Virus record (IMG/VR): IMGVR_UViG_2734482549_000007
Length of the DNA: 4,615 nt
Direction: 5' to 3' (one strand)
From: a virus
Taxonomy: Duplodnaviria; Heunggongvirae; Uroviricota; Caudoviricetes
In this document: positions 1 to 3,657 of the stretch, piece by piece
How positions within the stretch are numbered: the stretch's first letter is position 1
Layout: the number at the start of each line of letters is the position of its first letter
Made by a program: the position numbers and the translations under genes
Notes under the pieces: generated by a model
What the model saw: the letters and a program-made list of their open reading frames with translations, nothing else
Told to the model about the DNA's origin: nothing
Database searches by the model: none

Positions 1-155
1 TTGAACTCTTTAGAGTAACGTTGGGTTTTTCTGCTCATTATTAGCTCCTTCTGATGCCATTCTATTTCAGGAAGGAGTGTCCGTTAAACTCAGGCTACCT
101 CAGGTTATTCGCTTCTGGGCATGGGCGGATCAACAAATGATAGACGGTAATGCAG

Positions 156-178
156 ATTGTAACGCTCGCGGCGTTACA
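156..178. repeat. Perfect dyad TTGTAACGC-N5-GCGTTACAA (iteron- or operator-like site)
   Basis: 9-bp arms that are exact reverse complements around a 5-nt spacer, read directly from the sequence; lies inside the initiator coding region. Confidence 0.5.
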
Positions 179-367
179 AAAAGTGCAATAGATCGCATCA
201 CTTTTATGTCTGGTTTTGCTGATGCGTTAATTCAGGTTGGATGGCTGGTCGAAAATGACGGAGGGCTTTCTCTACCTAACTTTGAACGTCATAACGGAAA
301 AAGCTCTAAAAAAAACGGGCGGTTACAAACGAGCGAGTAACAAAAATACGCGAACTGAAACGAAAAG

Positions 368-386
368 GTAACGCTGCCAGCGTTAC
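368..386. repeat. Perfect dyad GTAACGCTG-C-CAGCGTTAC (second copy of the same GTAACGC motif)
   Basis: 9-bp arms exactly complementary around a single central base; shares the GTAACGC/GCGTTAC core with the 156-178 dyad. A further half-site CGTTAC sits at 404-409 and GTAACG at 15-20. Confidence 0.5.
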
Positions 387-785
387 ACAAACGGATCAAA
401 AAGCGTTACCAGAGGAAGAGGAAGAGGAAGATCTAAATACTGATCTCCCCCTCGCCAAAAACGAGCGTCTAAAAAATTCGAGCCGGAGGCTATTGAGCTG
501 CCCGATTGGTTGCCGGAAACACTCTGGCATGAGTGGGTCCGGTTCAGACAGGCATTGCGAAAACCGATTCGAACGGAGCAGGGCGCTAACGGGGCGATAC
601 GGGAACTGGAAAAATTCCGTCAGCAGGGTTTTACACCTGAGCAGGTGATTCGACACAGCATCGCCAATGAATACCAGGGCCTGTTCGCGCCGAAAGGTGT
701 TCGGCCTGAGACGTTGCTCCGACAGGTTAACACCGTCTCGTTGCCGGACAGTGCGATCCCGCCAGGCTTCAGGGGGTAACGGACC

Positions 786-1493
786 ATGAAAAATATTGCG
801 ACAGGCGGCGTTCTGGAACGCATCCGCCGACTGACCCCGCCACATGTAACCGCCCCATTCAGAACGGTAGCGGAGTGGCGCGAGTGGCAACTTGCTGAAG
901 GCCAGAAACGTAGCGAGGAGATCAACCGCCTGAATCGCCAGTTGCGGGTGGAAAAAATTCTGAATCGCTCAGGCATCCAGCCGTTGCACCGTAAATGCTC
1001 GTTTGCGAATTACCAGGTGCAGAACGACGGCCAGCGATACGCGTTAAGCCAGGCGAAATCCATCGCCGATGAACTGATGACCGGGTGTACAAATTTTGCG
1101 TTCAGCGGAAAACCTGGTACCGGGAAGAATCACTTAGCGGCAGCTATCGGGAATCGCCTGCTGAAAGACGGTCAGACAGTGATTGTGGTTACCGTGGCTG
1201 ATGTTATGAGCGCCCTGCNNNNNNNNNNNNNNNNNNNNNNNNNNNNNNNNNNNNNNNNNNNNNNNNNNNNNNNNNNNNNNNNNNNNNNNNNNNNNNNNNN
1301 NNNNNNNNNNNNNNNNNNNNNNNNNNNNNNNNNNNNNNNNNNNNNNNNNNNNNNNNNNNNNNNNNNNNNNNNNNNNNNNNNNNNNNNNNNNNNNNNNNNN
1401 NNNNNNNNNNNNNNNNNNNNNNNNNNNNNNNNNNNNNNNNNNNNNNNNNNNNNNNNNNNNNNNNNNNNNNNNNNNNNNNNNNNNNNNNNNNNN
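786..1493 (+). CDS. dnaC: DnaC-family replicative helicase loader (AAA+ ATPase), phage-encoded; 3' end lies inside the N-run
   Basis: ATG at 786 preceded by AGGGGG (771-776). The N-terminal 144 aa align by eye with E. coli DnaC: MKN..., ...NRSGI(Q/R)PLH..CSF.NY..., Walker A FSGKPGTGKNHLAAAI, ...V(I/L)..TVAD(V/I)MSA. The frame after the gap (SFRRIYGETF...) does not resemble the DnaC C-terminus, so the stop must be within 1219-1493; the end coordinate is a bound, not an observation. Confidence 0.85.
1219..1493. other. Unresolved sequence (275 N)
   Basis: Run of n characters; interrupts the dnaC-like CDS. Confidence 0.95.
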
Positions 1494-2493: not shown

Positions 2494-3180
2494 ATGACCC
2501 CAATAAACATATTTATGACAGTTGCTGATTTCAAACGGCCCAAATTGGAGCTCCCAAACGGGGCAAACAAACTACTACTGCACTCTTGCTGTGCTCCATG
2601 TTCCGGTGAGGTGATGGAGGCGCTTCAGGCCTCGGGAATCGACTACACCATCTTTTTCTACAACCCGAACATTCATCCTCAGAAAGAGTATTTAATTCGT
2701 AAGGATGAGAATATTCGCTTTGCTGAACAACACGGCGTGCCGTTTATTGATGCTGATTACGACACAGACAACTGGTTTGAACGAGCCAAAGGAATGGAAT
2801 GGGAGCCCGAACGAGGGATCCGTTGCACCATGTGTTTTGACATGCGTTTTGAGCGGACAGCGCTGTACGCCGCTGAAAATGGTTTCAGTGTGATCAGCAG
2901 TTCACTGGGCATTTCACGCTGGAAAAATATGCAGCAGGTTAACGACTGTGGGCGGCGAGCCGTCGCGCATTATCCGGGCATGGTGTACTGGGATTATAAC
3001 TGGCGCAAGCAGGGCGGCTCGTCCCGTATGATTGAAATCAGCAAGCGCGAAAAATTCTATCAGCAGGAATATTGTGGCTGTGTGTATTCTCTGCGCGATA
3101 CCAATCTACACCGCAAATCTCAGGGACGCCCTCTTATCAAAATTGGTCAACTCCACTACGGTAAAGAAGAGAAGGAGTGA
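2494..3180 (+). CDS. queH: Epoxyqueuosine reductase QueH-like protein (DUF208 family)
   Basis: 228-aa ORF containing [11 protein letters not shown] near the N-terminus and EYCGC near the C-terminus, which I recognise as hallmark DUF208/QueH motifs. Start is ATG 2494 or ATG 2515; neither has a clear SD. A possible extended -10 (TGcTACACT, 2472-2480) lies upstream. Identity is from motif memory. Confidence 0.75.
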
Positions 3181-3331: not shown

Positions 3332-3657
3332 NNNNNNNNNNNNNNNNNNNNNNNNNNNNNNNNNNNNNNNNNNNNNNNNNNNNNNNNNNNNNNNNNNNNN
3401 NNNNNNNNNNNNNNNNNNNNNNNNNNNNNNNNNNNNNNNNNNNNNNNNNNNNNNNNNNNNNNNNNNNNNNNNNNNNNNNNNNNNNNNNNNNNNNNNNNNN
3501 NNNNNNNNNNNNNNNNNNNNNNNNNNNNNNNNNNNNNNNNNNNNNNNNNNNNNNNNNNNNNNNNNNNNNNNNNNNNNNNNNNNNNNNNNNNNNNNNNNNN
3601 NNNNNNNNNNNNNNNNNNNNNNNNNNNNNNNNNNNNNNNNNNNNNNNNNNNNNNNNN
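3332..3657. other. Unresolved sequence (326 N)
   Basis: Run of n characters between the queH-like gene and the terminator. Confidence 0.95.

Follow-up and report, generated by a model that had tools for sequence, protein, structure and literature searches.

A candidate lambda-like replication origin inside the gene of a YdaU-family prophage initiator

Can the gene of a prophage replication initiator itself contain the origin at which this initiator acts? The question is raised by a stretch of 4,615 nucleotides (nt) from the virus record IMGVR_UViG_2734482549_000007 (Caudoviricetes), analyzed here as a whole and called the window. It harbors the remnant of a YdaU-family initiator gene, and within this gene two copies of a GTAACGC dyad, further half-sites and a tract of purines. 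A preliminary description of this DNA, made from the letters alone, had interpreted these repeats as an origin analogous to that of phage lambda. We consider it likely that positions 147-452 of the window constitute the core of a lambda-like prophage origin, which is located inside the gene of its own initiator and is built on an N-terminal domain (N-domain) unrelated to lambda O. From the comparison of homologous loci we infer binding of the initiator, the site of melting and the firing of the origin.

Dyads, half-sites and purine tract within the initiator gene

The putative origin comprises the following elements of the window, with coordinates given from its first letter:

147-153, plus strand: degenerate left half-site GTAATGC, 12 base pairs (bp) upstream of the left arm of dyad 1
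157-179, no strand assigned: dyad 1, TT GTAACGC TCGCG GCGTTAC AA, solitary and distal, in the region coding for the N-domain, where it encodes C-N-A-R-G-V-T
368-386, no strand assigned: dyad 2, GTAACGC TGCCA GCGTTAC, core dyad of the putative origin-proximal cluster, in the linker-coding segment
403-410, plus strand: last right half-site GCGTTACC, 23 bp (two units of 11-12 bp) past the right arm of dyad 2 and abutting the purine tract
411-431, plus strand: polypurine tract AGAGGAAGAGGAAGAGGAAGA including (GAGGAA)x3, candidate DNA-unwinding element
432-452, plus strand: A/T-rich patch with GATC at 442, then the remnant of a C5-N-C5 element cut by a 10-bp deletion

The motif GTAACGC-N5-GCGTTAC is present in exactly two copies in the window, at 159-177 and 368-386; in shuffled window sequence, 0.14 matches were expected even with three mismatches allowed. 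The arms of the palindromes reach 157-165/171-179 in dyad 1 and 368-376/378-386 in dyad 2. Two perfect dyads had been reported in the preliminary description, and both were recovered, the first at a position slightly different from the 156-178 given there. The excess of GTAAC/GTTAC pentamers over chance was likewise confirmed, with eight observed in positions 1-431 as compared to about 0.84 expected, and so was the (GAGGAA)x3 repeat at 412-429, which forms part of a 21-nt purine run (411-431). This tract had been described as A-rich and is GA-rich instead.

Among the six sites listed as dyads or half-sites in the preliminary description, the two dyads and the site at 404-409, which belongs to the conserved GCGTTACC at 403-410, were retained. 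The GTAACG at 15-20 was discarded because it lies in the end of an IS600 element, and GGTTAC at 322-326 and GTAACA at 337-341 were discarded because they lack the near-invariant C-G described below and are not conserved in homologues. The pentamer at position 337 reads GTTAC in other Escherichia coli copies. The initiator gene of the preliminary description is a pseudogene here. The half-site at 147-153, which had escaped the preliminary description, is an exact GTAACGC in L006, another E. coli copy. GATC (Dam) sites are found at 394, 430 and 442, i.e. three within 50 bp flanking the GA tract and twelve in the whole window; several enterobacterial homologues likewise have a GATC in the spacer that precedes the last half-site.

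Homologues were collected from phage records, by a protein search and from one genome per species. The last of these sets comprised 80 loci from Enterobacterales, Pseudomonas, Burkholderiales, Planctomycetota and Verrucomicrobiota including Akkermansia, at 31-70% amino-acid identity, and a non-redundant set of 53 loci was obtained at 90% identity. Almost every locus carries one dyad at gene nt 149-161 and another one at nt 338-394. In the 53 loci, 91 dyads with at most one mismatch were found in gene nt 1-480 (3.6 per kb) as compared to six in about 290 kb of flanking DNA (0.02 per kb), and all six represent a dyad at -31 to -43. In intact enterobacterial loci this third dyad is located 31-43 nt upstream of the start codon and reads TGTAACGCTGCGAGCGTTACAAGGTGAAAACAAATG in L002; most lineages of the 53-locus set are devoid of it. 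The 44.8-kb genome of phage TL-2011b contains two dyads in total, both within the initiator gene.

Codon choice at the sites was compared with expectation, which for dyad 1 was derived from local codon usage. At the synonymous positions of dyad 1, glycine is encoded by GGT in 40 of 41 loci (9.6 expected), asparagine by AAC in 44 of 44 (27.6 expected) and valine by GTT in 44 of 46 (12.6 expected). Within the last half-site, leucine is encoded by TTA in 44 of 45 loci (3.7 expected), and all 72 arginine codons of the GA tract are AGR, i.e. AGA or AGG (12.9 expected). The bias toward TTA and AGR persists in hosts with a GC content of at least 55%. Furthermore, dyad 2 is read in two frames, by 32 and 14 loci, respectively, and encodes GNAASVT in the window and VTLAAL in a Klebsiella phage; the GA tract is also translated in two different frames, yielding EKRRE, REEKR or EEEEEE. 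Fixed synonymous positions together with a dyad read in two frames argue that it is the DNA which is constrained, with the repeated G-N-A-x-S-V-T peptide as a by-product. Selection on the sites operates at the level of the DNA whatever the reading frame, and the sites are confined to the initiator gene. An alignment of homologues had been named in the preliminary description as a check of whether the dyads are kept beyond what the codons require; they are, throughout this range of identities and in several phyla.

Architecture of the array, specificity classes and the proposed origin

A common layout was found across phyla. Dyad 2 is preceded by directly repeated left half-sites GTAACG, one to five in number, and followed by right half-sites CGTTAC. 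Of the latter there are one or two, and the final one invariably reads CGTTACC. Directly 3' of this last half-site lies the polypurine tract and then an A/T-rich patch. The 19-bp dyad consensus is GTAACGCTnnnAGCGTTAC; alignment of 111 sites gave aaNG-GTAACGC-T-nnn-A-GCGTTAC, with a near-invariant C-G at site positions 6 and 14 (110 and 108 of the 111 sites). Within a dyad, the starts of the two hexamers are separated by 13 bp, and neighboring half-sites are spaced by 11-12 bp or the double of it, a phasing which places the half-sites on one face of the helix.

The tract consists of (GAGAA)n in most homologues and of three GAGGAA units in the window. In 42 of 51 loci it exceeds every other purine run on both strands of the 6.5-kb locus. 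In a nearest-neighbor scan, the least stable 40-bp segment of the locus was found to begin at gene nt 370-415 for 20 of 47 loci; the median percentile was 0.2%, and the E. coli locus closest to the window ranked at 5%. As GC skew tracks the direction of transcription in temperate phages, it was set aside here. A domain model divides the initiator gene in the window into an N-terminal DNA-binding domain up to about position 340, a linker from about 340 to 470 and a C-terminal domain (C-domain) up to the stop codon. The dyad 2 cluster and the GA tract map to the disordered interdomain linker, residues ~115-157 of this model.

A further element, C5-N3-5-C5, often followed by G5, was observed 32-48 nt past the last half-site in eight of 47 loci, for example at about gene nt 441-470 in L002. 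Eight of the nine C5-N3-5-C5 elements on the plus strand in 286 kb of loci are found at this position. In the window, a 10-bp deletion has removed one C-run of the element (446-452). A palindrome lies to the right of the AT-rich region of lambda, and the position of C5-N-C5 is similar. With its occurrence in eight of 47 loci, the C5-N-C5...G5 element was rejected as a core part and is regarded as a feature of a subfamily.

The half-sites change in a concerted manner. In L157, all of them read GTCACG/CGTGAC, at dyad 1 as well as across the dyad 2 cluster. In the subfamily of phages epsilon15 (L292) and BUCT711 (L294), which share about 28-33% identity, all half-sites are GTCCGC/GCGGAC; the dyad of two hexamers separated by N7, the additional half-sites at 12 bp, the abutting tract AGAGAAGAGAAG and the solitary distal dyad are nevertheless retained. 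The solitary dyad of epsilon15 is found at gene nt 66-84 rather than at about 150, and its cluster at 330-420. Dyads and half-sites are thus repeated, selected at the DNA level and co-varying with the initiator subfamily. Such a switch of all half-sites together with the initiator subfamily, while the geometry is kept, fits recognition by a cognate initiator and indicates that the half-sites are probably recognized by the initiator of their own locus.

We propose the following mechanism. The 19-bp dyads and the flanking half-sites would be bound by the winged-helix-like N-domain of the YdaU-family initiator, with dimers occupying the dyads and more subunits the half-sites one helical turn (11-12 bp) apart. 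The array ends directly on the polypurine tract of low stability, the presumable place of DNA opening, and the variable C-domain would recruit the helicase via a partner encoded downstream, in the window the DnaC-like YdaV. Dyad 1, about 200 bp upstream, and the third dyad of enterobacteria, about 200 bp further, probably join the complex by looping or wrapping; the distal dyads may serve autoregulation too. The lambda-like origin anticipated in the preliminary description is supported by conservation, the reading of dyad 2 and of the GA tract in two frames each, the concerted change of half-sites, the placement in the linker ahead of a purine-rich tract of low stability and the loader or helicase gene that usually lies downstream.

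Several observations weigh against this mechanism. The sites are inverted repeats, and in iteron plasmids inverted repeats are typical of autorepression operators and not of origin iterons. Nothing in lambda corresponds to the solitary distal dyads. In E. coli-type loci, the tract belongs to the least stable 5% of segments only and is not the minimum of the locus. The literature on YdaU, oriJ, the motif, DnaT-like initiators, replication modules and epsilon15 yielded no data on binding, unwinding or replication for members of the family. Furthermore, four viral contigs carry a dyad with phased right half-sites, but neither a detectable gene for the N-domain nor a GA tract:

L184, ~6940-6970: orphan array
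L240, ~6455: orphan array
L276, ~5976: orphan array
L278, ~2273: orphan array

Apparently, such sites can occur in other contexts. The orphan arrays may be sites that use the initiator of a helper phage, or sites for divergent initiators. L184 is a satellite-like, capsid-encoding contig with an integrase, a replicase-like open reading frame and an HK97-type capsid gene, and a LexA-like box (CTGT-N8-ACAG) is located beside its array; the array of L240 lies in a cro-proximal intergenic region.

Inverted repeats would also be expected if the dyads were autoregulatory operators by which the initiator represses or blocks its own operon while the origin is situated elsewhere. The enterobacterial upstream dyad, which ends 13 nt before the start codon beside the ribosome-binding site, and the positions of the L240 and L184 arrays near cro and the LexA-like box would suit this role. 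We nevertheless regard it as unlikely as the sole function, a dual role being compatible with an origin. The upstream dyad is absent from most lineages, and a promoter scan around it found nothing; operators would leave unexplained why a phased array ends on a conserved, DNA-selected polypurine tract of low stability and why it is placed in the linker-coding segment, as in the lambda origin. A scan of the 44.8-kb TL-2011b genome for this motif also revealed no second cluster of repeated sites. Recognition by another protein, either a host factor or a neighboring phage regulator of the Cro, CII or YdaT-like type, would account for the four arrays without an N-domain gene, and binding by the initiator is itself deduced. 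The sites, however, accompany the N-domain across phyla while flanking genes and C-domains vary, and the half-site sequence switches with the N-domain subfamily. No sequence-specific host factor of this specificity is known to be common to Planctomycetota, Verrucomicrobiota and Proteobacteria. This explanation is considered less likely still than the operator.

The perfect stems of 8-9 bp raise the question of whether the dyads function as hairpins in RNA or DNA, for instance as terminators, attenuators or RNase III sites in the mRNA or an antisense transcript; in E. coli, dyad 2 on the minus strand together with CTTTTCGTTT indeed fits a terminator-like pattern (L002 4265-4283). The T-run after the minus-strand dyad 2 is short and not conserved outside enterobacteria. 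Among 777 arm pairs, however, 65 one-sided changes creating a mismatch were counted as compared to three compensatory ones, and these three are the same A-to-C/T-to-G switch that changes every site in L157. Unpaired single half-sites are conserved and phased at 11-12 bp, and the arms are invariant across phyla with a variable loop. The hairpin was therefore rejected as the conserved unit on the statistics of the arm pairs, and we hold such a function to be very improbable. Even less credible is the repeat as a by-product of protein conservation, namely of a duplicated G-N-A-x-S-V-T peptide and an acidic linker. Dyad 1 does overlap the most conserved peptide of the N-domain, and linkers of the EEEEEE type are common, but the synonymous positions are fixed contrary to the codon usage of the host, and both dyad 2 and the GA tract encode unlike peptides, VTLAAL or GNAASVT and EKRRE, REEKR or EEEEEE, respectively. 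The codon and frame tests thus led us to reject an explanation at the protein level.

A lambda-like origin inside the initiator gene, as preferred here, would provide both an origin and a recognition code for one of the largest uncharacterized families of phage initiators. The DNA signature is shared by related genes from several bacterial phyla, and no description of the motif or of an origin was found in the literature named above; the richly annotated epsilon15 record contains repressor and IHF sites and nothing in the initiator gene. The succession of dyad, half-site ending in C and GA tract could be used for the annotation of origins in thousands of prophages, and the half-site classes GTAACG, GTCACG and GTCCGC form a natural series for studies of initiator-DNA recognition. 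The element also illustrates clearly how a DNA site and a coding sequence constrain each other. With the family being very large, it should be generally useful to annotators and experimenters, even though the window contains a dead remnant of it.

More tentatively, and with clearly less confidence than in the origin itself, one may envisage an undescribed and very widespread origin cassette, present in about 10,000 clusters at 50% identity and in at least four phyla. Here, a winged-helix initiator would be encoded over its own sites, which dictate part of the protein (G-N-A-x-S-V-T and the EKRRE/EEEEEE linker). The complex would perhaps be looped or wrapped over dyads about 200 bp apart and open a GA-polypurine tract instead of an AT-rich element, and orphan arrays such as that of L184 would perhaps hijack the initiator of a helper. 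We regard this wider picture as rather doubtful.

The initiator family and the broken copy in the window

The initiator matched 'replication initiation protein' phrog_2509 of PHROGs with an E-value of 1e-89. Matches to 'O-like' (PHROG 678) and 'primosomal' families were obtained with the C-domain, in which the sole 'O-like' match lies. For the N-domain, no Pfam family was found at E ≤ 0.01 and nothing in NCBIfam, and a profile-based sequence search of the PDB with the initiator gave no matches. A profile search revealed 10,087 cluster representatives at 50% identity, 3,700 of them at E ≤ 1e-30. Members occur in epsilon15-like phages, in TL-2011b from the outbreak strain of enterohaemorrhagic E. 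coli O103:H25, in Rac-like prophages of E. coli and Shigella and in prophages of Pseudomonas, Akkermansia and Planctomycetota.

The C-domains differ among homologues and include a DnaT type; N-domain and sites travel together across phyla while flanking genes and C-domains change. In ten diverse loci, the next gene encodes a DnaC/IstB-like loader (three), a lambda-P-type loader (two), a DnaB helicase (one), a primase-helicase (one) or another or unknown product (three). A DnaC-like partner was detected by tblastn in only eight of 47 loci, and Pfam then showed several types of loader and helicase. Modules of initiator plus loader or of initiator plus helicase begin with the initiator gene. Only two plasmid records contain the initiator gene, and both are phage-like, one being a circle of a lambdoid phage genome and the other a phage-like chimera. 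The former, the 41-kb 'plasmid' NC_015459 of Pusillimonas sp. T7-7 (L171), is a complete lambdoid siphophage genome, in which the initiator gene (38043-38816) and the adjacent ATPase gene are the only replication genes.

The window itself is organized around the putative origin as follows:

1-101, minus strand: end of the insertion sequence IS600 (IS3 family), 100% identical to multi-copy IS600, outside the origin
102-779, plus strand: remnant of the YdaU-family (phrog_2509) initiator gene, a pseudogene with its stop codon at 777-779
786-1219, plus strand: ydaV, the partner gene of the initiator, encoding a DnaC-like AAA+ helicase loader; 3' part of ydaV masked by N

Homology to a Rac-like prophage of E. 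coli extends from window position 102 onward. The start of the transposase, MSRKTQRYSKEF, was located on the minus strand, reading leftwards from about position 37, and the GTAACG at 15-20 is part of IS600. Alignment with intact relatives revealed that the first 103 nt of the initiator gene are replaced by IS600, that two extra A are present in the A-run 308-315 and that 10 bp are missing after 446. This 10-bp deletion is located between TCCCCCT direct repeats. Two frameshifting indels and the lost 5' end identify the gene as a pseudogene. The copy in the window is unable to make its own initiator, and the prophage is dead with respect to replication; the element could be active only if an intact initiator was supplied in trans. 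The third, upstream dyad is absent from the window because the IS600 insertion removed this stretch.

In intact E. coli relatives, the initiator gene comprises 789 nt encoding 262 amino acids and is followed by ydaV after 7 nt; one intact copy is labeled 'phage replication initiator YdaU family protein' in RefSeq. The ydaV product matched NF009043 with an E-value of 8e-154 and the DnaC equivalog model with an E-value of 2e-91, the latter under the cut-off of that model. Many differently broken copies of the initiator gene are found in database entries of Shigella and E. coli, and the IS600 end at 1-101 suggests an IS-laden, Shigella-like genome. Runs of N occupy 1220-1493, the 3' part of ydaV, and 3332-3657. 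As judged from synteny with L002, the latter probably covers a hokD-type toxin region downstream of a QueH-like gene (2494-3180).

Comparison with iteron plasmids, oriJ and the lambda origin

The iteron plasmid replicons of RepA, pi and RepE resemble the element in having an initiator of winged-helix type, as predicted here, and helically phased sites near an easily melted region. Both systems also contain inverted repeats that could autoregulate. The Rep proteins, however, share no sequence similarity with the initiator in Pfam or PDB matches, and the sites described here lie inside a coding sequence and consist of half-sites of 6-7 bp at 11-12 bp intervals as compared to iterons of 17-22 bp.

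The oriJ/YdaU-YdaV region of the Rac prophage in E. coli K-12 belongs to the same type of prophage and has the same gene order; the C-domains are 85% identical, and the same DnaC-like YdaV is encoded next. In contrast, K-12 YdaU has an unrelated DUF1376 N-domain, and its gene is devoid of GTAACGC dyads. It possesses four mid-gene repeats of its own, ATGTTCAAACA, three of them direct and one inverted (L007 2472-2578), and these represent candidate iterons of oriJ. With a shared C-domain but different N-domain and repeats, oriJ is predicted to be a different specificity in the same scaffold. The YdaU proteins of K-12 and of the window type thus appear to be domain-swapped alternatives with differing predicted origin specificity.

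In lambda, the middle of gene O contains the origin, which is composed of iterons and an AT-rich tract; the O protein also binds this tract in single-stranded form (PMC7466680). In the lambda sequence, we found an 18-nt coding-strand purine run about 20 bp past the last of the four annotated mid-gene iterons; it is the longest of the region. The two systems have in common an origin, putative in our case, within the initiator gene in the segment for the interdomain linker, sites with internal dyad symmetry followed by a coding-strand purine run of low stability, and a helicase loader gene next to the initiator gene, which in some YdaU-family relatives is a true homologue of lambda P. They differ in the initiator, as the N-domain of the YdaU family has no Pfam match and hhalign gave a probability of 0.1% for its relation to lambda O. 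Furthermore, the place of the four lambda iterons of 18-19 bp is taken by hexamer half-sites that surround a single dyad with a phasing of 11-12 bp, additional dyads stand alone about 200 and 400 bp upstream, the tract is rich in GA and not in A, and the site sequence is near-invariant across phyla and not phage-specific. The element would be lambda-like in its working but is not a member of the lambda type by descent.

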